A stretch of 64,000 bases of DNA from an uncultured Pseudomonadota bacterium (GTDB taxonomy: Bacteria > Pseudomonadota > Alphaproteobacteria > Rs-D84). Below, in pieces: positions 10,277 through 54,387 of the stretch (positions within the stretch are counted from its first letter, which is position 1; each line of letters starts with the position of its first letter). Where the stretch lies: positions 72,409-136,408 of the forward strand of contig CADCKW010000001.1 in assembly GCA_902802115.1 (NCBI GenBank), in the 5' to 3' direction. The position numbers were made by a program, and so were the translations under genes. Under the pieces are notes generated by a model. The model saw nothing but the letters and a program-made list of their open reading frames with translations, made no database searches and was not told the DNA's origin.

Positions 10277-10352
10277 TGGTGGCCAGAAGTGGAATCGAAC
10301 CACTGACACAGGGATTTTCAGTCCCTTGCTCTACCAACTGAGCTATCTGGCC
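10277..10352 (-). tRNA. tRNA-Phe (GAA)
   Basis: The reverse complement folds as a cloverleaf: GGCCAGA-TA-GCTC-AGTTGGTA-GAGC-A-AGGGA-CTGAAAA-TCCCT-GTGTC-AGTGG-TTCGATT-CCACT-TCTGGCC-ACCA. The anticodon is GAA and the CCA is encoded. Confidence 0.85.
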
Positions 10353-15914: not shown

Positions 15915-16457
15915 ATGAAAAAAATACTTAAACTATTATCTGCATTGGCTGTGATAGTGACTGTTGCAGGCTGCACAAATACAAATGAATACAACCATAA
16001 AAAACATTATTACAACGACGAACAGATTTGCACAAAATGTGGCAAGAAAAATTGCGAACACAAAAAACATTATTACAACGACAAACATAAAAACAAATTA
16101 TATTCAAAAATGTACACTCGCAACAATCATGGCGAAGCCAGTGAAATCGGTTATGTTAAATTCTATGATATCGACAGCGGTGTAAAAATGGTCGTAAATG
16201 TTGATAAATTGCGCGATGATATCGATTACACAACAAAAATATATCAATGCAAAGATGCGAAATGCACCAACCCAGACACATGTTGCAAAGAAACAACAAT
16301 GTCTTTGGAAATGCCTTTGACACGTAAAAACAAAAAATCCCCAATGCTGCAAGAAACATTTATTATCAAAAATATAAACACCAATCACTTGCAAGGCGCA
16401 ACAATATTCTTTGAACGCGACAAAGGATATCGTGCCGCATGGGGATTTTTGGATTAA
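15915..16457 (+). CDS. Lipoprotein with HKKHYYND repeats (hypothetical)
   Basis: 180 aa with a lipobox (VAGC) and an AAAGGAG RBS. It has internal His/Tyr-rich direct repeats (NHKKHYYNDEQICTKCGKKNCEHKKHYYNDKHKN). Confidence 0.55.
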   Translation: MKKILKLLSALAVIVTVAGCTNTNEYNHKKHYYNDEQICTKCGKKNCEHKKHYYNDKHKNKLYSKMYTRNNHGEASEIGYVKFYDIDSGVKMVVNVDKLRDDIDYTTKIYQCKDAKCTNPDTCCKETTMSLEMPLTRKNKKSPMLQETFIIKNINTNHLQGATIFFERDKGYRAAWGFLD

Positions 16458-16467
16458 AAATAACCAC

Positions 16468-16500
16468 AAAAAAACAGTCGCAAATGCGACTGTTTTTTTA
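16468..16500. terminator. Bidirectional rho-independent terminator
   Basis: The hairpin cagtcgcaaatgcgactg is flanked by A-run and T-run, between convergent genes. Confidence 0.7.
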
Positions 16501-20986: not shown

Positions 20987-21082
20987 AATTCCTTCCTTTG
21001 TATTTAATCCCTTGTATTATACTATTTTTTTGTCAGTCAGTAAAGCAGAAAAAAACAACGAAAATAATTAGCAATTACTATA

Positions 21083-21330
21083 TACAAAACGTACATAAAC
21101 GAGCCACCAACAGTTCGTTCATCGGGTGATTTTTAGATAAATAATGGTGCAGATGCGCAGTTGATGGCGAGTGCCGTGTACAAAACGTACATAAACGAGC
21201 CATCAACAGTTCGTTCAACGAAAGATTTTTAGATAAATAATGGTGCAGATGCGAAGATAAAAACGAGCGTAATGTACAAGTGCTACATGAGCGAGTTTTT
21301 ATCAAGCAGATGTGCCATTATTTATCTAAA
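21083..21330. repeat. Array of structured hairpin repeats (family R, 1 truncated + 2 full units)
   Basis: The units are ggtgcagatgcgcag-STEM-gagtg.cgtgtacaa.gctacataaacgag-STEM'-…. The stem sequences differ between units but stay complementary (ttgatggc/gccatcaa; gataaaaac/gtttttatc). The outer arm tttttagataaataatgg/ccattatttatctaaaaa overlaps the stop of gene 21318..22142. Confidence 0.7.
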
Positions 21331-22142
21331 AATTGGGTGACTGTGGGTGCAAGTGACCCTATCCCAGATAACCCACCACCACTGGTGAGCCCCCCAACCG
21401 CCTGCATAATACTGCCGGTGTTGGTTTTTTGACCCGCATTGGAAATGGTTGTGGTTAAAAATGAAGCATATGCCTCGCGATTGCGTTTAGTAATATTTTC
21501 AGGCGAACACTTTTCCATTTTTTCCATCATTTTACCATACATGGTTGCCTCGTCATTGGTATAATCCACAACGGTAAAATCAATTGCACCAAAAACTTTA
21601 TATATATTTGATTTATATTTTTGTTTGGACGACGCACATGTTGGCATGCCATCGGCACAATAATATCCATACGAAGCCTTTGGATAACCTTCCCAAATCA
21701 TACCCTTATCAGTCTCACCAGACTGACCAAAAAATTCAGTACAAGGTTCAATAGAATTTGTTGTCGCAACCACCTTTAAATCATCAGCATAGGTATTATT
21801 ACCATCACACCTTTGTCCAGACGTCACAGTTTTAAACATACTATCTGCGGTCACCGCACCGGCCTTGGCATATTCTTTGACCATATTATTAACCCAGTTA
21901 ATTTCTGTGGCCGTCGGCACACACTCTGCCGCCAATTCTTTTTGTTGCTTGGTCAAAGCCGACACATTGGACACCAATCCAATAACGCCTGGCAACAATG
22001 ACCCCGATGTTATACTTTCCAAACCCGATGTTTCTTGTTTTTTAACATTTGATGCTTTTTTGACCTGAAAATCAGCCGCATTGGCAACAACACCACACAT
22101 GCAGACAATCAATCCCATTAAAAAAGAAATTTTTTTTCTCAT
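21318..22142 (-). CDS. Secreted hypothetical protein
   Basis: 274 aa with a signal peptide (…VVANA|ADF). It contains several Cys residues. Its last codons and stop lie within the repeat arm. Confidence 0.5.
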   Translation of the reverse strand: MRKKISFLMGLIVCMCGVVANAADFQVKKASNVKKQETSGLESITSGSLLPGVIGLVSNVSALTKQQKELAAECVPTATEINWVNNMVKEYAKAGAVTADSMFKTVTSGQRCDGNNTYADDLKVVATTNSIEPCTEFFGQSGETDKGMIWEGYPKASYGYYCADGMPTCASSKQKYKSNIYKVFGAIDFTVVDYTNDEATMYGKMMEKMEKCSPENITKRNREAYASFLTTTISNAGQKTNTGSIMQAVGGLTSGGGLSGIGSLAPTVTQFLDK

Positions 22143-22709: not shown

Positions 22710-23434
22710 AACAATCTGTATTACGCGTTGAACATTTATCTAAAAATTACGGCAAACGAACAGTTATTCGCGATATATCAATGATTGTTCGCCAAGGCGA
22801 ATCTGTGGGATTATTGGGGCCAAACGGTGCTGGAAAAACTACTGCGTTTTATTGCATAACAGGTCAATTAAATGCAACATCTGGTCAAATATTTTTAAAT
22901 TCCCAAGATATAACACACCTGCCATTTTATCAAAGGGCGCGTTTGCATATTGGATATCTGCCCCAAGAAAACAGTGTATTTCGCGGATTAACCGTCGAAC
23001 AAAACATTATGGCAATATTAGAAGTTGTCGAACCATCACGCAAAAAACGTATTGAAAAATTAGAATCATTATTAAATGAATTTTCGATTTCTCATTTACG
23101 CACCAGTCCTGCAACTGCATTATCTGGTGGCGAACGTCGTCGTGTTGAAATTGCACGCGCATTGGCAAACGACCCAAAATTTATATTATTGGACGAACCA
23201 TTTGCCGGCATTGACCCAATCGCCGTAAATGAAATTCGTGATTTGGTATCACAATTAAAAGACAGAGGCTTGGGTGTAATTATCACCGACCACAATGTTC
23301 GCGAAACATTGGGCATCACCGACCGCAGTTATGTTTTACACGATGGAAAAATTTTAAAACATGGCACCGCCCGCGAAATCACCGCCGACGAACAGGTAAA
23401 AAAAGTATATCTGGGCGAAAATTTCAGCATGTAA
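22706..23434 (+). CDS. lptB: LPS export ABC transporter ATP-binding protein LptB
   Basis: 242 aa with Walker A GPNGAGKTT, the signature LSGGERRR and Walker B LLDEPFAG. It has the LptB-type C-terminus. Confidence 0.8.
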   Translation: MKQSVLRVEHLSKNYGKRTVIRDISMIVRQGESVGLLGPNGAGKTTAFYCITGQLNATSGQIFLNSQDITHLPFYQRARLHIGYLPQENSVFRGLTVEQNIMAILEVVEPSRKKRIEKLESLLNEFSISHLRTSPATALSGGERRRVEIARALANDPKFILLDEPFAGIDPIAVNEIRDLVSQLKDRGLGVIITDHNVRETLGITDRSYVLHDGKILKHGTAREITADEQVKKVYLGENFSM

Positions 23435-23462
23435 AAAAACCCCGAAAATTCGGGATTTTTTT
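23434..23462. terminator. Bidirectional rho-independent terminator
   Basis: The hairpin aaaaaaaccccgaaaattcgggattttttt sits between lptB and the convergent gene. Confidence 0.7.
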
Positions 23463-24281: not shown

Positions 24282-24357
24282 TGGTGGACGCACAGGGACT
24301 CGAACCCTGGACCCACTGATTAAGAGTCAGTTGCTCTACCAACTGAGCTATGCATCC
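24282..24357 (-). tRNA. tRNA-Lys (CTT)
   Basis: The reverse complement is GGATGCA-TA-GCTC-AGTTGGTA-GAGC-A-ACTGA-CTCTTAA-TCAGT-GGGTC-CAGGG-TTCGAGT-CCCTG-TGCGTCC-ACCA. The anticodon is CTT. Confidence 0.85.
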
Positions 24358-36609: not shown

Positions 36610-36750
36610 TTATTTTGGTTGTGCTCCAAAATGTGGTGGCACAATCAATTTTTGGTTTTGTTCTACAATCGGTTCAACCTCGCAATTACAACAACCGGCA
36701 ACCGCCGCCACTGACAAAACCGCCAAACAAATCAACAAAGCTTTTTTCAT
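36610..36750 (-). CDS. Small lipoprotein (46 aa), hypothetical
   Basis: It encodes MKKALLICLAVLSVAAVAGCCNCEVEPIVEQNQKLIVPPHFGAQPK with a lipobox AGC. An AAGGA RBS is 7 nt upstream. Confidence 0.35.
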   Translation of the reverse strand: MKKALLICLAVLSVAAVAGCCNCEVEPIVEQNQKLIVPPHFGAQPK

Positions 36751-36780
36751 CTCTTTTCCTTTTAATCTTAAAACTATTTA

Positions 36781-36877
36781 AAAAAATAACGAGACAGATG
36801 CGCAGTTGTTTATGAGTGCGGTGTAGAACTGCTACATAAACGAATAAACAACAAGCAGATGCCCTTTATTTTTTTAA
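36781..36877. repeat. Structured hairpin repeat (family R), solo unit
   Basis: The unit is aaaaataacgagacagatgcgcag-ttgtttat-gagtgcggtgtagaactgctacataaacgaa-taaacaa-caagcagatgccctttattttt. It has the conserved core and covarying inner and outer stems. Confidence 0.7.
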
Positions 36878-36912
36878 ATTATGCCCCAATCAATCGATTG
36901 GGGCAATAACTT

Positions 36913-38845: not shown

Positions 38846-38872
38846 AAAAAAAGCGGGAAAACCGCTTTTTTT
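38846..38872 (-). terminator. Rho-independent terminator after the hemolysin-III gene
   Basis: The hairpin aaaaaaagcgggaaaaccgcttttttt is palindromic with A-run and T-run. Confidence 0.65.
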
Positions 38873-47826: not shown

Positions 47827-49107
47827 ATGAAAAAAGATACCAGACCACTTGCCGATATTATGCGCCCTGCAACCATAGAAGAAGTTGTCGGGCAACAAAA
47901 TTTATTGGGTGAAAACGGATTGATACGCCGTATGGTTGATAACCACAAATTATCAAATTTAATATTATGGGGTCCCCCAGGTTGCGGTAAAACAACAATT
48001 GCACGCGCATTGGCACATTCTGTTGATATGGATTTTGTCCCGATGTCTGCGGTATTTTCTGGATCCGCCGATATAAAGAAAGCAATGGACGCGGCACGTA
48101 TGAATCGCGACATCGGTCGTGGAACACTGTTATTCATAGATGAAATTCACAGATTTAACAAAACCCAGCAAGACACATTATTGCCATATCTGGAAGACGG
48201 CACAGTTGTCTTTATCGGTGCAACAACCGAAAACCCCAGTTTTAATTTAAATAATGCATTGCTGTCACGTTGTCATGTTGGGGTTTTAACACCATTGGGC
48301 ACTGATGATTTAATGATATTACTGGACCGCGCCGAAAAATTTTTAAATAAAAAATTACCATTAACCATGGACGCAAAAATTCACTTGGCACAAATGGCTG
48401 ATGGCGACGCGCGATTTTTATTAAACACCGTTGAATATTTATCAAGCGCGAATTTTAAAAACGATTTAGACATCGATGCATTGGATAACGCAATACAAAA
48501 ACGCGCACCATTAAGTGATAAAACCGGTGACGAACATTATAATTTAATATCTGCGGTTCATAAATCTTTACGGGCCAGTGATACAGATGCGGCATTATAC
48601 TGGGTTGCACGCATGATGACATCTGGTCAAGACGCACGATACATTTTCCGTCGTCTTACCCGATTTGCAATGGAAGATGTTGGCCTGGCCGACCCAAACG
48701 CATTACAAATCGCGATTGCGGCATGGAACGCATACGAACGATTAGGCAGTCCCGAAGGCGATATTGCCTTGACTGAATTAGTTATATATTTGGGCACCGC
48801 ACCCAAAAGTACGTCCAGCGACCGCGCATTGATGGCATCATATAAATTAGCCAAACAAACAGGCAGCCTGCCCCCACCAAAAAACATTTTAAATGCACCA
48901 ACAAAAATGATGCGCGATATGGGATATGGCGCAGGATACATTTACGAACCCGACACAAAATCTGGGTTTTCTGGTCAAAATTGTTTCCCAGAAAGCATGC
49001 AACGCACAAAATTATATACACCAGTTGAACGCGGATTTGAACGTGAAATAAAAAAACGTGTTGATTATTGGGACGGATTACGCGAAAAAATAAACAATAA
49101 AAAATAA
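47827..49107 (+). CDS. rarA: Replication-associated recombination protein A (AAA+ ATPase)
   Basis: 426 aa with Walker A GPPGCGKTT, Walker B LFIDEIHRFNK and a MgsA C-terminal domain. Confidence 0.9.
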   Translation: MKKDTRPLADIMRPATIEEVVGQQNLLGENGLIRRMVDNHKLSNLILWGPPGCGKTTIARALAHSVDMDFVPMSAVFSGSADIKKAMDAARMNRDIGRGTLLFIDEIHRFNKTQQDTLLPYLEDGTVVFIGATTENPSFNLNNALLSRCHVGVLTPLGTDDLMILLDRAEKFLNKKLPLTMDAKIHLAQMADGDARFLLNTVEYLSSANFKNDLDIDALDNAIQKRAPLSDKTGDEHYNLISAVHKSLRASDTDAALYWVARMMTSGQDARYIFRRLTRFAMEDVGLADPNALQIAIAAWNAYERLGSPEGDIALTELVIYLGTAPKSTSSDRALMASYKLAKQTGSLPPPKNILNAPTKMMRDMGYGAGYIYEPDTKSGFSGQNCFPESMQRTKLYTPVERGFEREIKKRVDYWDGLREKINNKK

Positions 49108-49129
49108 CGCCAAATTGGCGTTATTTTTT
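49100..49129. terminator. Bidirectional rho-independent terminator
   Basis: The sequence aaaaataacgccaaattggcgttatttttt lies between rarA and the convergent OMP gene. Confidence 0.7.
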
Positions 49130-49872: not shown

Positions 49873-51048
49873 TTAGAATTGGAACATAACTTGCAACCCA
49901 ACCGACCATTCGCGGAATTTAGACAAATCAACATACGCATAATGTGCCGGGTCATTAAACTGTGCCGCCGTTGCAGGCAAAGTTCCATCATGCACGACCA
50001 AAGTCTTGTCATCTGCGCTGTCATACAAAGATGTTTTTGCATACAGATTCAATGCAAACCAATCATTTGGCTGCCAACCGAATGCACCTTTGATAGAAAA
50101 CTGGTCATGCCAATCATAGAAACCATATAAACCTTCAACATTTAAAGTCCAATCTTCTGCCAATACGGTCCAAACACCCATACCTAATTCGCCCATAAAA
50201 ACAGTATCTGTTGAATCGCCATAAACCAACATACCCCATTCGTTCGTGGTCAGGTTTTCCATATAATCACCATAAACATCACCGTCCATATTCACCAACC
50301 AACCGCGTGCCAAACCATAGATTGTTGATGTTGCGACTTTATACCCTGCCTTTAAATCAGCAATAAAATAATCAACACCATGTTTTTGATGTTCATAATA
50401 CCCAGATATCGTTGCAATCCAATCGTCTGTATCAACAATACGCCCCTGCAAACCCAAACCATACAGATTCAAACCATTTGATTTATATTCATCTGTACCT
50501 GCACCGGCGGTATCTGTCCATATTAATTTATCACGATTGTATTTACCCATTGCCTGCAAAGCGATACGGTCAGTCAAACCAAAACTCAAATCTTCCTTTA
50601 AAGACAATTCTTTTAATTTTCTGGCGACTTCGCCTGTGGCATTACCAAAATTATATTTACCCTCTAAATATTCACCGGTGGTCACCGAACCAAATTGAAA
50701 TTGCAAAGGCTGATAAAAAGGATTTGCAATAAAATATTTCCGCTTTGCAGATTTACGATATGTTTCACCACGAACATATGTTTGTTTATTTTCACGTGGT
50801 TTTACCTGACTATAATGACGTGGTTCATAATTTGTATTGATATTATCATACATACCCGCACGCGACGCACGTGGCGCATAATCATTAGAATAAGATTCAT
50901 ACGCACTACGATTTATACGGATAGTATCCCCATCAGAATTTGTCATATTGATACTGGAATACATAGAACTGCGGCCCGCCGCATTAACATCTGCACCAAA
51001 CGCAACACAGCCCAAAACTGCGAAAATCCCAAAAAATTTGATATTCAT
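49873..51048 (-). CDS. Outer-membrane beta-barrel protein (hypothetical)
   Basis: 391 aa with a signal peptide (…AFGADVNA). It ends …LQVMFQF and has aromatic-rich beta strands. Confidence 0.6.
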   Translation of the reverse strand: MNIKFFGIFAVLGCVAFGADVNAAGRSSMYSSINMTNSDGDTIRINRSAYESYSNDYAPRASRAGMYDNINTNYEPRHYSQVKPRENKQTYVRGETYRKSAKRKYFIANPFYQPLQFQFGSVTTGEYLEGKYNFGNATGEVARKLKELSLKEDLSFGLTDRIALQAMGKYNRDKLIWTDTAGAGTDEYKSNGLNLYGLGLQGRIVDTDDWIATISGYYEHQKHGVDYFIADLKAGYKVATSTIYGLARGWLVNMDGDVYGDYMENLTTNEWGMLVYGDSTDTVFMGELGMGVWTVLAEDWTLNVEGLYGFYDWHDQFSIKGAFGWQPNDWFALNLYAKTSLYDSADDKTLVVHDGTLPATAAQFNDPAHYAYVDLSKFREWSVGLQVMFQF

Positions 51049-51151
51049 TTAAATTCTCCTTTCCCGTCAATTATATCACATTTTACCCCAATAAAAAAGC
51101 CATAATTACATTTGAATTAAAAAGTAAAAAATAAAATATAAATATGTAAAT

Positions 51152-51443
51152 AGAACGAGGTAGATACGCAGTTATTTGCAAGTGCAGTGTACAAGCGCTA
51201 CATAAACGAGCAAATAACAAGCAAACATGCCGCCAACCCAACAGATATTAGAACGGTGTAGATGCGCAGTTGTTTGTGAGTGAAGTGTACAAATGCTACA
51301 TGAACGAACAAACAACAAGCAGATATGCCACAACAAATAAAAACAGATTTTATAACGGTGTAGATGCGACGATTCCGGCGAACGTAGTGTACAAGAGCTA
51401 CATGAGTGAGCCGGAATCAAGCAGATATGCCGTTATAAAATCT
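51152..51443. repeat. Array of three structured hairpin repeats (family R)
   Basis: Three tandem units of about 90 bp. Each has the conserved boxes gtagatgcgcag / gagtg.agtgtacaa.gctacatgaacga / caagcagatatgcc. The stems between them vary and compensate: ttatttgc/gcaaataa, ttgtttgt/acaaacaa, gattccggc/gccggaatc. In unit 3 the outer arm is ttttataacgg/ccgttataaaa. The ftsK stop codon lies in the last arm. Confidence 0.75.
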
Positions 51444-53649
51444 GGCGTTTGTTGTTGGCATCAGGCGCACTCACAATCCCTTCTTGTTCCATACGTTCCA
51501 TAAATCCAGCCGCCTTGTTATAACCAATTCCTAATCTTCGTTGCAGATATGAAATTGTTGGCTTTTTATCGCGCAAAACAATTTCTTTGGCCTGGGAATA
51601 CAAATCACCGTCCTTGGCGGCTTTAACATCTGCCGCCGATGGTGCCGCCCCAGACGCAATATCATCACCAGAATCCGTCACACCCGATGCATATTCTGGT
51701 TCGCCTTGGGAACGCAAGAAATCACCAATACGCGTTAATTCTTTATCCGAAATAAATGCACCATGAATACGTACCAAATCATGTCCAGAATCACTGTATA
51801 ACATATCACCACATGCCAATAACTGTTCTGCACCCTTTTCGCCCAATGCCGTCATTGAATCGATTACACTACGCGCATGGAAAGAAACACGTATTGGGAA
51901 ATTGGCTTTGATAACACCCGTAATGGTATTTGCGTCTGGACGCTGGGTTGCCATAATCAAATGAATACCGGCGGCACGCGCCTTTTGTGCAATTCGTTGA
52001 ACGCACATTTCAACCTCTTTACGCGCCACAGCCATCAAATCTGCGACCTCATCAATTACTATTACAATATATGGCATATCAGACAAATCGACTTCTTGGG
52101 TTTCAAACAACAATTCACCTGTTTCCTCGTCTGTGCCAATGGCAACCTGTTGAGTAATTTTCTCACCGGCCTCGCGCTTGGCGGCAACAATTTCATTATA
52201 ACTTTGAATATTACGCGCATTAACAACCTGCAACTGTTTATAACGTTCTTCCATTTCACGCACCGCCCATTTCAATGCGTTCACAGCCGCCGTCGCATCT
52301 AATTTCACAATTGGCGTAATTAAATGTGGGATATCGTCCCAAAATCCAAAATCAACACCTTTTGGGTCAATAATAATCAACTTACATTTATCAGGTGTAA
52401 AATGATACACAATAGAAGTAATTATCGATTGAACAAATACAGATTTTCCAGTTCCCGTATGTCCAGAAACCAACATATGCGGCATTTTTGCCAAATCATA
52501 ATATAATGGATTTCCACCAATATCGACTCCCAACGCCAACGGTATTTTAAAAGGCGAATTTACAAACATATCATTTTCTATTAGACTACGATATTTAACC
52601 GTTTGTGGTTTTAAATTTGCCATTTCCACACCAATCAATTGCGTTGATGGAATTGGCGCAATACGCAAAGTTTTTGTCGCCATGGCGCGCGTCATATCTT
52701 TGACAGTCTTGGTCACATCAATCAATTTTGTTCCGCTTTCCGGCAAAAATTCATACAGTGTCACAATTGGTCCTGGGCGAATACCCGTCACTTTGCCATA
52801 CACATTGTATTCTGCGAAATGTGTTTCCATAGATTCTGCTTGGGCCCTTAATTCAGGTGTCACAACCCCTTTGCCAAACACAGATTCTTCCAAAAATTCA
52901 GGGTCAGGCAATTCATATTCGCTATTTTCAACCACAACTTTTTTACGAACCGCACGTGTTTTCTTTTGCTTAGGTTTCTCTTCTTCCTCTGCTTCTTCGG
53001 TTTCTTCTTCTGCGTCTTCTTCCTCTTCATCTTCTTCACGCACAGGCAAAATATGAAATGCAGACAGCACCCAACGAATTGCGCCCCAAACCAAATGCGC
53101 AACACTAACCACATAATCCCATTTTATATGCAATAAAATTCCAGCCATCAACCCAAATCCAGCCAACGAAAGCAAACCAATAATAATCTGCCAATTACCC
53201 ATAAACGCACCAAAATCATTTGATGCAATCGCGCCAAACATACCACCAAACGAAGACCCTGGAAACACCATACCAAACCCAGCGCACCCCAAACATAACG
53301 CAATAAATCCACGCAATATATTATATTCAGGCGTTGCCATTTCATCGCGTCCGCCCATGTAATAAAAACCTGCACGCATTAAACACAAAAATAAAAATAT
53401 CATTGGAATAAAACCAAACACATATCGCATAAAACCAACGACCCACCCAAATATACCATGATTACCATATGTGCTGGAAACCGCCCAACCGTCCAGATAA
53501 GAATTATAAAACAAGGCCGATAAAATCGCCAATACACCAACGACAAACATCACCCCGCCCAACAACCGCCAAGCCAGGTCTTTCAACGCCCCAGACAATC
53601 TTTCTGGTAAAAATCTAGATTTTCCTTCCATGCCCCGATTATACCACAA
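51433..53649 (-). CDS. ftsK: DNA translocase FtsK
   Basis: 738 aa with N-terminal TM segments and an acidic E-rich linker. The motor domain has Walker A GHTGTGKS, and there is a C-terminal gamma winged-helix domain. Confidence 0.9.
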   Translation of the reverse strand: MWYNRGMEGKSRFLPERLSGALKDLAWRLLGGVMFVVGVLAILSALFYNSYLDGWAVSSTYGNHGIFGWVVGFMRYVFGFIPMIFLFLCLMRAGFYYMGGRDEMATPEYNILRGFIALCLGCAGFGMVFPGSSFGGMFGAIASNDFGAFMGNWQIIIGLLSLAGFGLMAGILLHIKWDYVVSVAHLVWGAIRWVLSAFHILPVREEDEEEEDAEEETEEAEEEEKPKQKKTRAVRKKVVVENSEYELPDPEFLEESVFGKGVVTPELRAQAESMETHFAEYNVYGKVTGIRPGPIVTLYEFLPESGTKLIDVTKTVKDMTRAMATKTLRIAPIPSTQLIGVEMANLKPQTVKYRSLIENDMFVNSPFKIPLALGVDIGGNPLYYDLAKMPHMLVSGHTGTGKSVFVQSIITSIVYHFTPDKCKLIIIDPKGVDFGFWDDIPHLITPIVKLDATAAVNALKWAVREMEERYKQLQVVNARNIQSYNEIVAAKREAGEKITQQVAIGTDEETGELLFETQEVDLSDMPYIVIVIDEVADLMAVARKEVEMCVQRIAQKARAAGIHLIMATQRPDANTITGVIKANFPIRVSFHARSVIDSMTALGEKGAEQLLACGDMLYSDSGHDLVRIHGAFISDKELTRIGDFLRSQGEPEYASGVTDSGDDIASGAAPSAADVKAAKDGDLYSQAKEIVLRDKKPTISYLQRRLGIGYNKAAGFMERMEQEGIVSAPDANNKRQIL

Positions 53650-53703
53650 AAAATCCTAAAATTAAAGGGGGACAATATAAAAAATCGGGATAATCCCGAC
53701 TTT

Positions 53704-54387
53704 CTATTTTATCCGTCTAACAATCGCCAAAACGACATCTGCGGCGACCATACCAATAAACGCACCCAATATAACATCGGTCGGCCAATGCGCACCAATT
53801 GCCACACGCGACACAGCAATCACAATTGCCAAAGTCCATGTCAGCCATTTGAAACGCGGCATTAACATACCTAACATAACCAAACCGGCAAACGATAACG
53901 CGGTATGCCCAGACGGCATAGAATTAAACCAATAATTTGTTGTAAATGGATAAAAACCGTCTAAACCCAACATATCAAAAAATCTTGGGCGCATACGACC
54001 AATAACAAACTTTAATATTTCGACAACGATGCCAGACAAACACAGCGAACACAAAACCAAAAACGCATTACTGTTTTTTAATTTTGAATACGCATCTTTG
54101 AATAAAAATTGCACATTAAACCAATGCATCTGTGTTGTTGGATTATTACGCAATTCGTATGTTTTTTTCAAATACATCAATATTGTTGCCAATAAAAATA
54201 CCGCAACCCAGACCTTGCCATCAAATATATTCGCGAACCAATGCCACAAAGTAATATCATAATTTTGCAACCATAAATATACTGGCACATCAAACCAACG
54301 AACCCCGACAATCACAGTCGCCAAAACCAAAACACTCGCCACAACCAAACGCAACCATTTAATTTTATTTTGTTTTGAAATAAACAT
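53704..54387 (-). CDS. PAP2-family lipid phosphatase
   Basis: 227 aa with the motifs KxxxxxxRP (KFVIGRMRP), PSGH, and SRVAIGAHWPTD. Confidence 0.75.
   Translation of the reverse strand: MFISKQNKIKWLRLVVASVLVLATVIVGVRWFDVPVYLWLQNYDITLWHWFANIFDGKVWVAVFLLATILMYLKKTYELRNNPTTQMHWFNVQFLFKDAYSKLKNSNAFLVLCSLCLSGIVVEILKFVIGRMRPRFFDMLGLDGFYPFTTNYWFNSMPSGHTALSFAGLVMLGMLMPRFKWLTWTLAIVIAVSRVAIGAHWPTDVILGAFIGMVAADVVLAIVRRIK

Follow-up and report, generated by a model that had tools for sequence, protein, structure and literature searches.

A nested-palindrome repeat family at stop codons of alphaproteobacterial genes and its possible role as terminator or 3'-end hairpin

What are the three tandem hairpin units that separate ftsK from the next gene downstream in an uncultured, AT-rich alphaproteobacterium? 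The units are located in a stretch of 64,000 nucleotides (contig CADCKW010000001.1, positions 72,409 to 136,408), which is called the window here. The original prediction offered a multicopy small RNA family, attC-like or REP (repetitive extragenic palindrome)-type recombination substrates, or a new class of structured MITE (miniature inverted-repeat transposable element), and a structured MITE or REP-like element is the best fit among these candidates. The units belong to a dispersed, recombining family of palindromic repeats tied to stop codons. With a probability of roughly 55%, they are nested palindromes of the REP/MITE kind whose hairpin works as a terminator or at the 3' end of genes, and not a small RNA gene.

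The three tandem units C1, C2, and C3 are present at ftsK (Table 1). The sequence reading of the window gave six full units and one half unit at three loci, all on the + strand. The seven units counted originally correspond to seven matches of the core motif GTRYANANNNNCTACATRARYGA, compared to 0.04 expected from shuffled sequences, but one of them is the half unit. Tandem Repeats Finder indicated periods of 96 and 98-102, and the units within an array are spaced by 96-103 bp with no open reading frame (ORF) in between. The pairwise identity of the window units was 55-81%, which rules out recent identical duplicates. A minus-strand ORF at 51172-51420 that spans the array exists and has no family match; it is counted as spurious, in line with the original prediction.

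Each unit forms a nested rod. The core comprises ~85 bp and, together with the arms, 110-125 bp; the family range is given as about 85-125 bp. The outermost layer is a locus-specific outer arm of 12-19 nt. Next comes a helix of box A, AAYGGTGYAGATGCG, and box B, CAGATRTGCCRTT, interrupted by a tandem G.A 2x2 loop; inside this helix are a 9-bp variable stem and then a second tandem G.A loop, GAGYG / RAYGA. The top of the unit is the apical hairpin GTGTA-CAANNNC-TACAT with a conserved G.T as closing pair. The conserved apex is thus GTGTACAA-N3-CTACAT with tandem G.A mismatches on both flanks. Folding of the terminal units with their arms yielded -33 to -57 kcal/mol and z-scores of -6 to -12. The stems quoted in the original prediction are correct and complementary; their self-complementarity stands, but “completely different” does not apply to C1 and C2, which are alike at 6/8 positions and differ by two compensated changes. 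On the + strand, the apex sequence GCCGAGCGAAGTGTACAAGAC (all clades; e.g., 51380-51400; L054 5935-5960) is at ~15/23 positions like the complement of what we take to be the universal region 1390-1410 of the 16S rRNA, GACGGGCGGTGTGTACAAGGC, a post hoc likeness that may well be due to chance.

To determine the distribution of the family, species-representative genomes were scanned with a search pattern, and a covariance model (CM R1) was then built from the six window units. The model, an approach that the original prediction had suggested, found 36 close copies with 55-102 bits in more than 15 metagenome-assembled genomes (MAGs) of gut and rumen Alphaproteobacteria, the gut clade. The carriers include RUG13375, RUG13870, UBA3760, UBA3635, several RGIG bins, Candidatus Enterousia, and UMGS1304. 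Weaker matches with 21-37 bits were obtained in Rhizomicrobium, Micavibrio, and other alphaproteobacteria, and these elements contain the apex GAGCGA-N-GTGTACAA-N3-GTACAT-GAGCGA within a different long rod. Non-orthologous copies across species reach up to 92-95% identity, and some orthologous copies are decayed (L138, 27 bits). The whole element is an inverted repeat with the ends AYGG...CCRT in the gut clade, GGCGCG...CGCGCC in Rhizomicrobium, and AGAGC...GCTCT in a third clade. All units of all arrays are in direct orientation and never alternate. The compared loci, designated by L and a number, are from metagenome assemblies, in which repeats can be misassembled; several of the arrangements recur in independent samples.

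No catalogue that was searched contains the family. With Rfam 15 at the gathering threshold, the whole window yielded only two tRNAs, and no known family was matched by the units; the E-value mode on 51000-51600 plus two distant-clade copies gave chance matches of at most 20 bits, far under the gathering scores. The two tRNA genes are on the minus strand at 10280-10352 and 24285-24357. Searches by blastn produced no match in a plasmid collection, viral or phage contigs contained only two chance matches, and no description of the repeat family was found in the literature by sequence string and keywords. As to an autonomous element with the same ends, box A and box B occurred in ~1.3 Mb of fetched DNA only inside the short elements. 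Judged by these comparisons of sequence, the units represent a class-wide alphaproteobacterial repeat family that is absent from the searched catalogues. The pattern matches in Saprospiraceae (L037, L040, L042, L045, L050, L075, L081, L083, L085, L093, L097, and L118) have a longer string in common, GCAAATGTACAAAATCTACATAAATGA, and are unrelated to the family. At L152 1537-1790, after ftsK of another species, box A, box B, and A/T arms surround a GC-rich insert of ~190 nt that replaces the 9-bp stem and the apex; this arrangement may be due to a nested insertion, or it may represent a relative of larger size.

The position of the elements is tied to stop codons. The right neighbor of nearly all copies, in model orientation, is a minus-strand stop codon at +4 to +20 nt, whereas on the left either the next gene starts or a convergent gene ends. 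The palindromes of the GC-rich clades end as TA-GGCGCG...CGCGCC-TA or T-AGAGC...GCTCT-A. Their adjacent stop codons are TAG in 16, TAA in 10, and TGA in 4 cases versus 32, 54, and 82 in the other long ORFs of the same loci (P = 3e-4 for the enrichment of TAG, P = 2e-4 for the depletion of TGA). In these clades, the terminal TA and the first base of the element are the stop codon itself, and an element at this position is therefore harmless to the gene. Sites between convergent genes account for 10/17 in the GC-rich clades. Most copies have TA at both ends, but TA is self-complementary, so that these ends may equally be a lengthened inverted repeat. At the borders of the arrays lie direct repeats of the gene end, which are imperfect and 7-9 nt long.

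The orientation of the elements is also biased. At least 12 independent loci of the gut clade lie between co-directional genes, and the element is antisense to the genes in all of them (P = 5e-4). The GC skew is negative in element orientation at 25/25 loci. In the window, the GC skew of the + strand is negative throughout (-0.05 to -0.24), even at ~2.3-16.5 kb, where most genes are on the + strand; the whole window is probably on one replichore, with the + strand as lagging strand.

The ftsK locus shows how the arrays change. Orthologous loci were obtained by exact-protein look-ups and by a metagenome scan with the FtsK C-terminus. The comparison of related strains, another suggestion of the original prediction, demonstrated that presence and copy number vary: among strains with 99-100% identical FtsK ends, the arrays are hypervariable. 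The window and L004 contain C3-C2-C1; L003, L005, and L006 contain C2-C1, with C2 as the terminal unit; L001 and L132 possess C2, a duplicated flank, half of C3, and C1; L133 possesses a foreign-armed unit X, half of C3, and C1; and L088 has C2' followed by a C3/C1 chimera. A three-unit array is also present in L135, at 82% identity. In related strains, C3 is either missing or only a half unit at another position. The site is empty in L136, where ...NKRHIL* TAA is directly followed by TTTTGGGC without a hairpin and the downstream promoter is common with that of the filled L135, and it is likewise empty in L137, L140, and L146. Other species have a canonical terminator (L141, L142, L153) or a different palindrome at this spot. 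In L156, L162, and L164, just past the ftsK stop, a different long palindrome, TAGTGGTTAGTGGTTAG...CTAACCACTAACCACTA, surrounds a GC hairpin and starts at the stop codon, which suggests that several unrelated palindromic elements occupy the stop-codon niche in these bacteria.

FtsK ends with NKR(Q/H)IL* regardless of the presence of an element. This end is found also at the empty sites L136, L137, L140, and L146 and is therefore the native end of the gene, not an element read as protein, so that the proposed in-frame insertion in the manner of Rickettsia palindromic elements (RPEs) does not hold. Similarly, the 274-aa protein at locus A ends with Q(F/L)LDK* in two species, the window and the orthologous locus L110, at different offsets of the element. 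An insertion into a pre-existing terminator palindrome at ftsK was considered and rejected: the empty sites contain no hairpin, and the reconstructed palindrome would destroy the ftsK stop.

The outer arms of C3 form a perfect inverted repeat of 15 nt, which includes the ftsK TAA (51433-51435) and the last codons, in agreement with the complementary arm assigned to this unit originally. The codon CAT of ftsK in L135 is mirrored by ATG in the arm, while CAG in the window is mirrored by CTG. Such mirroring spans 12-17 nt of coding sequence and was seen at no fewer than three independent loci: the distal arm is copied from the gene end. Internal units of the arrays retain only the distal arm, and the spacers are progressively decayed copies of it, a pattern that fits an addition or duplication of units beside the stop codon. 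The half units, including A1, and the chimera all break within ~4 nt of the junction between GTA and GTGTACA, at the 5' edge of the apex. For the unit at L133 1536-1660 beside ftsK, the arms, TATCGAAATATAAT, correspond to the last codons (...NEI*) of an element-bearing gene for 524 aa in L080 (4260-4350); it seems that this unit moved along with arms made at another gene. On the minus strand of L091 (740-1200), an array with a period of 136 nt is composed of repeats that each contain the 5' half of a unit, cut between GAACGTAG and T, plus ~70 nt of unrelated AT-rich sequence, and this array finishes in one complete unit.

Covariation that preserves pairing, as claimed in the original prediction, is real and far above shuffled and slid controls. 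In the 36 gut-clade copies, 93.6% of the cells form standard pairs compared to 76.4% after shuffling and 20-45% with slid partners, and 20/26 pairs display double changes. In 14 copies of the distant clade, 27/33 pairs are compensated, including isolated pairs within the conserved purine-rich region. The stems are a few recurrent alleles, GTTGTTTGC, GATTCCGGC, TTATTTGC, and TTGATGGC, which are seen across loci and species and combine freely with two apex types, alpha and beta. Outside one conserved G.T, there are 41 G.T versus 35 A.C, and in the variable stem G.T is not above A.C; wobble pairs were rejected as an indicator of the strand. The signal claimed originally therefore stands, but not as proof of selection on RNA: covariation alone does not provide this, and the stems are shuffled by recombination among copies as recurrent alleles. 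The locus-specific arms demonstrate that a DNA-level templating process makes perfect complements.

The two strands of the palindrome are conserved differently. The + strand folds better than its complement in 42/45 copies, by a mean of 7.4 kcal/mol, and by 3-4 kcal/mol under DNA parameters. The cause is the conserved tandem G.A loops, the counterparts of which on the opposite strand would be C.U/U.C. These GA/GA loops are present in 25/36 and 31/36 gut-clade copies and in 12/14 copies of the distant clade, where Watson-Crick pairs and G.A/A.G alternate along the helix of the conserved region. The G.U closing pair is conserved in 34/36 copies. This asymmetry argues that one single-stranded form of the element matters.

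The terminator reading starts from the terminators that end many genes of the host, which consist of TAA, an A tract, a GC hairpin, and a T tract; extended stems take in the stop codon. Canonical bidirectional terminators in the window are at 16457-16498, 23434-23461, 38850-38871, 49107-49128, and 53680-53704 and are shared by convergent genes. The arms of gut-clade elements measure 12-18 nt; the 5' arm is rich in A and the 3' arm in T. An extra T tract on the sense strand is present at the L135 unit and at C3, where C3 is followed by TTTTTATTTGTTG. Since A-rich and T-rich arms surround the element as in the bidirectional terminators of the host, a role at the 3' end is favored, and the gut-clade elements most likely act, by this analogy, as the hairpin of a terminator or as a 3'-end-protecting structure for ftsK, thrS, and the gene for the 274-aa protein. 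The downstream genes keep promoter-like regions of their own. A simple terminator scan called none at the elements, the stems of which exceed its limits, and simple promoter and terminator scans are uninformative for such long stems.

Several observations weigh against the REP/MITE-like repeat with a terminator or 3'-end function. The GC-rich clades contain no T tracts, and their elements often fill gaps of 11-26 nt between co-directional genes, which indicates that a terminator role is not general. The G.A motifs and the preferred folding of one strand fit neither the end of a double-stranded DNA transposon nor a sense-strand terminator. No transposase, RAYT (REP-associated tyrosine transposase), or recombinase turned up in the window or in the fetched loci of at most 8 kb, although no systematic search was made. 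The empty ftsK sites could be deletions, and the compared loci include no clean filled/empty pair for a single unit with an unambiguous target duplication. Finally, the orientation bias is confounded with the gene strand and the GC skew with the coding strand.

In the REP/MITE-like reading, a copy lodges exactly 3' of a stop codon, and the palindrome would gain its outer arms through hairpin-templated copying of the terminal codons of the gene, an intramolecular template switching. Template switching is established for quasi-palindromes. Survival would be limited to events in which the coding side is the template and the non-coding side receives the copy. Gain and loss of units beside the stop might then result from duplication and from recombination between conserved boxes and apex, with the palindrome centre as a breakage hotspot, as for any long palindrome. 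The spread in trans would need some enzyme; the TA ends hint at an IS630-like source, or alternatively, the apex breakpoints and the strand-specific conservation hint at an enzyme for single-stranded DNA. The one-way orientation may reflect survivorship, with the strand forming the more stable G.A hairpin not persisting as the lagging-strand template. As with structure-prone repeats, the more stable hairpin could be tolerated on the nascent lagging strand, where it would favor expansions.

Table 1. Repeat units and adjacent features in the 64-kb window
Feature	Position	Strand	Description
Half unit A1	21080..21128	+	3' half only, begins at the apex ATATACAA
Unit A2	21141..21225	+	Stem TTGATGGC/GCCATCAA; CAGTTCGTTCAACGAAAG in place of box B; CM 80.6 bits
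Unit A3	21237..21321	+	Stem GATAAAAAC/GTTTTTATC; CM 100.6 bits; fold -51.8 kcal/mol, z-score -11.7
Outer arms of A3, 19 nt	21225-21243 / 21315-21333		Include the stop (21318-21320) plus the final codons of the 274-aa gene
Unit B1	36786..36870	+	Single unit; stem TTGTTTAT/ATAAACAA; CM 91.1 bits; downstream of thrS
A/T-tract arms of B1	36776-36789 / 36866-36879		
391-aa gene downstream of the array	49873..51048	-	Signal-peptide-like N-terminus; no family match
Possible relic direct repeat of the ancestral ftsK end (low confidence)	51106..51114	+	Minus strand reads CAAATGTAA; bounds the inserted block
Unit C1	51152..51236	+	Stem TTATTTGC/GCAAATAA, box A, apex, box B; CM R1 88.4 bits; most distant from the ftsK stop, boxes degenerate
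Unit C2	51250..51334	+	Stem TTGTTTGT/ACAAACAA; CM R1 100.3 bits
Left outer arm of C3	51344..51358	+	CAGATTTTATAACGG; inverted copy of the last ftsK codons; to its left an A-rich tract, which is a T tract on the sense strand
Unit C3	51352..51436	+	Stem GATTCCGGC/GCCGGAATC, beta-type apex; adjoins the ftsK stop; CM R1 100.5 bits
Right outer arm of C3	51430..51444	+	CCGTTATAAAATCTG; holds the ftsK stop (minus-strand reading) and codons ...QIL
ftsK (DNA translocase)	51433..53649	-	NCBIfam NF007615, 6e-114; stop abuts the array

The Pfam FtsK domains were assigned on the L001 copy of ftsK. The label “OMP” (outer membrane protein) given originally to the 391-aa gene is unverified, as no Pfam or NCBIfam match was obtained; its promoter region GGCTTTTTTAT...TGTGATATAAT is kept in array-less relatives. 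The possible relic repeat was read from the empty site ...ATATTGTAA followed by TTTATGAC in L137 and from ...AAATTATAA followed by TTTTGGGC in L135. Strain polymorphism was looked for at loci A and B, and none was found; the intergenic region of B1 has an identical length in 8 strains. Between the thrS stop and B1, at 36882-36905, a GC-rich hairpin, TGCCCCAATCAATCGATTGGGGCA, has a T-rich tail on the + strand, and a sigma-70-like site on the minus strand, 36906-36878, overlaps it. Past B1, in the region 36610-36777, a small minus-strand ORF of 46-55 aa, MKKALLICLAVLSVAAV..., with the ribosome binding site GGAAAAGAG is called in all strains, and B1 may be in the 5' leader of this ORF. A Ros/MucR gene and a Caulobacter-type FtsN are neighbors in the window, and the same genes are present on rumen and gut metagenome contigs.

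Alternatively, the units may be substrates for recombination or transposition of single-stranded DNA, which is possible but rather unlikely. The one-strand, G.A-zippered hairpin would be nicked near its apex by an HUH enzyme (RAYT or IS200/IS605-like) or by a tyrosine enzyme (integron- or Xer-like), and the units would be excised and reinserted beside stop codons like mini-cassettes. Strand-specific conserved features, an apex conserved above variable stems in three clades, and the orientation tied to the GC skew at 25/25 loci are in line with such a process; so are the cores that were apparently swapped between fixed spacers among strains, and the attC-like position after the stop with folding of the bottom strand. 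The better-folding strand, however, is apparently on the leading-strand template and not on the lagging-strand template used by IS200/IS605. The beta-type apex has a GTAG directly 5' of the small hairpin, as in REPs, but GTAG is not conserved, being GCAG in the alpha type and GAAG or GATG in the GC-rich clades. The AAC/GTT of attC is replaced by AAT/ATT in many copies, there are no ORFs between the units, and no gene for such an enzyme was seen in the window or the fetched loci, again with no systematic search made. Breakpoints that cluster at the 5' edge of the apical hairpin would agree with nicking there, but breakage at a palindrome centre is also expected from generic hairpin nucleases such as SbcCD.

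A related and equally tentative proposal is that the family is a new kind of strand-specific G.A-zippered hairpin, the apex of which (GAGCGA-N-GTGTACAA-N3-GTACAT-GAGCGA) would be kept across Alphaproteobacteria by a putative factor acting on the single-stranded form. The factor, which might be a nuclease, a recombinase, or an RNA-binding protein, would direct units to stop codons, regenerate the stop from TA plus the first base of the element, and build arrays by placing each new unit beside the gene along with a newly templated, inverted gene-end arm.

A multicopy structured RNA that is made from the + strand and runs antisense to the end of the upstream gene is improbable; it would bind a conserved protein by means of its G.A-rich helix and apical loop, or block antisense transcription into the gene. 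The preferred folding of the + strand (42/45 copies) would be expected in this case, tandem G.A and a conserved G.U closing pair (34/36) are typical of protein-binding RNA helices, isolated pairs in the conserved region covary in the distant clade, and the unit at locus B is followed by the GC hairpin with a T tail on the + strand (36882-36905). Consensus scans, which are weak evidence either way, revealed no promoter-like site of the + strand upstream at three loci, and the + strand in the gut clade is antisense to both neighbors at the 12 or more co-directional loci. Moreover, G.T is not above A.C in the variable stem, some orthologous copies such as that of L138 decay, and Rfam gave no match. 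Like repeat DNA, the elements form arrays, half units, and chimeras and are polymorphic in presence. Together with the lack of a promoter-like site and the antisense position, these traits render unlikely the small RNA gene that the original prediction had listed.

Ordinary intrinsic terminators that evolved in place, immobile and alike by convergence, are the least credible explanation: the arms do resemble A/T tracts at the stop-codon position of host terminators, and L141, L142, and L153 have canonical terminators at the same ftsK site, but the boxes, G.A loops, and apex, ~60 nt of non-pairing yet conserved sequence, are common to unrelated loci and different alphaproteobacterial orders, non-orthologous cores are 92-95% identical, the arms of the L133 unit match the end of another gene, one species-level lineage contains filled and empty alleles (L135/L136), and the GC-rich clades lack a U tract.

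Comparison with known systems also favors a REP/MITE-like repeat, albeit with a distinctive architecture. REPs and bacterial interspersed mosaic elements (BIMEs) of Enterobacteria and Pseudomonas, which are RAYT-associated, are likewise extragenic, multicopy, imperfect palindromes at gene 3' ends, often clustered and thought to form hairpins in RNA or single-stranded DNA. Their GTAG 5' of a small apical hairpin is shared by the beta-type apex only, in ~11-13/36 gut copies. REPs are 20-40 nt long and occur as alternating units, whereas the window family forms nested rods of 85-125 nt that are always direct, is conserved at the apex and in the internal G.A loops but variable in the stems, and has the stop codon built into the palindrome. 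To our knowledge, there is no RAYT for this repeat family. According to a passage in PMC12306157 that cites earlier work, REPs at most 15 nt from a stop codon are documented and affect the upstream gene, which provides a precedent.

The TA-ended MITEs, such as Correia of Neisseria, ERIC/IRU of Enterobacteria, and QMITE2 of Coxiella, are similar when judged by description and not by sequence comparison: they are ~100-150 bp long, form one long inverted repeat with TA termini, are located in 3' untranslated or intergenic regions, and yield co-transcribed, stable hairpins that vary between strains. Some of them act as terminators or RNase III substrates (partly from PMC5896051). The window family also has the terminal inverted repeats that characterize a MITE of a DDE transposon (e.g., IS630/Tc1). 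It differs from the TA-ended MITEs in its arms copied from gene ends, few compensated stem alleles, strand-specific G.A motifs, one-way orientation in the gut clade, and class-wide apex. QMITE2 of Coxiella is a GTAG REP and the target of IS1111 (PMC5896051).

Integron attC sites are also located right after or overlapping the stop of the upstream ORF, have a fixed orientation, fold best on the strand complementary to the mRNA, form arrays, and possess conserved outer boxes around a variable paired interior. Their R''/R' triplets AAC/GTT are invariant, however, while the window family has AAT/ATT in ~13/36 copies (column 5/88: UA 13, CG 11); their apex is variable but conserved here; and no cassettes lie between the units, no integrase was seen, and the copies are scattered beside core genes (ftsK, thrS). 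Membership in the attC class, one of the original candidates, is thus not borne out. RPEs are palindromic repeats near or inside genes in an alphaproteobacterial lineage, but they are inserted in frame and translated, whereas the arm in the window is the native gene end. Canonical bidirectional terminators, such as 16457/16498, 23434/23461, and 49107/49128, present the same order of A tract, hairpin, and T tract from the stop codon; the hairpin of the window family, in contrast, is a rod of 40-45 bp with conserved loops that is shared across loci and species, without T tracts in the GC-rich clades. By-eye comparison with IHF sites, the CsrA GGA motif, dif/Xer arms, CIRCE, hammerhead and hairpin ribozyme cores, and the loops of the signal recognition particle RNA and the 5S rRNA gave no fit. 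The window family does not have the defining features of attC, RPEs, the BIME architecture, or any Rfam family, and it is distinguished by the class-wide apex with G.A motifs, the stop codon in the palindrome, the coding-templated arms, and the one-way orientation.

If confirmed, the family would be a class-wide addition to the catalogue of REP/MITE-like bacterial elements in lineages with almost no described non-coding repertoire, namely the gut RF32-type alphaproteobacteria, Micavibrio, and Rhizomicrobium. A family model helps annotators to mask spurious ORFs such as the one spanning the ftsK array, and the array itself can serve as a marker for strain typing because it differs among near-identical strains. 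The family would also be a tractable case for understanding how palindromes are kept and extended with arms from coding sequence, how an element occupies a stop codon without harm to the gene, and why the two strands of one palindrome are conserved differently.

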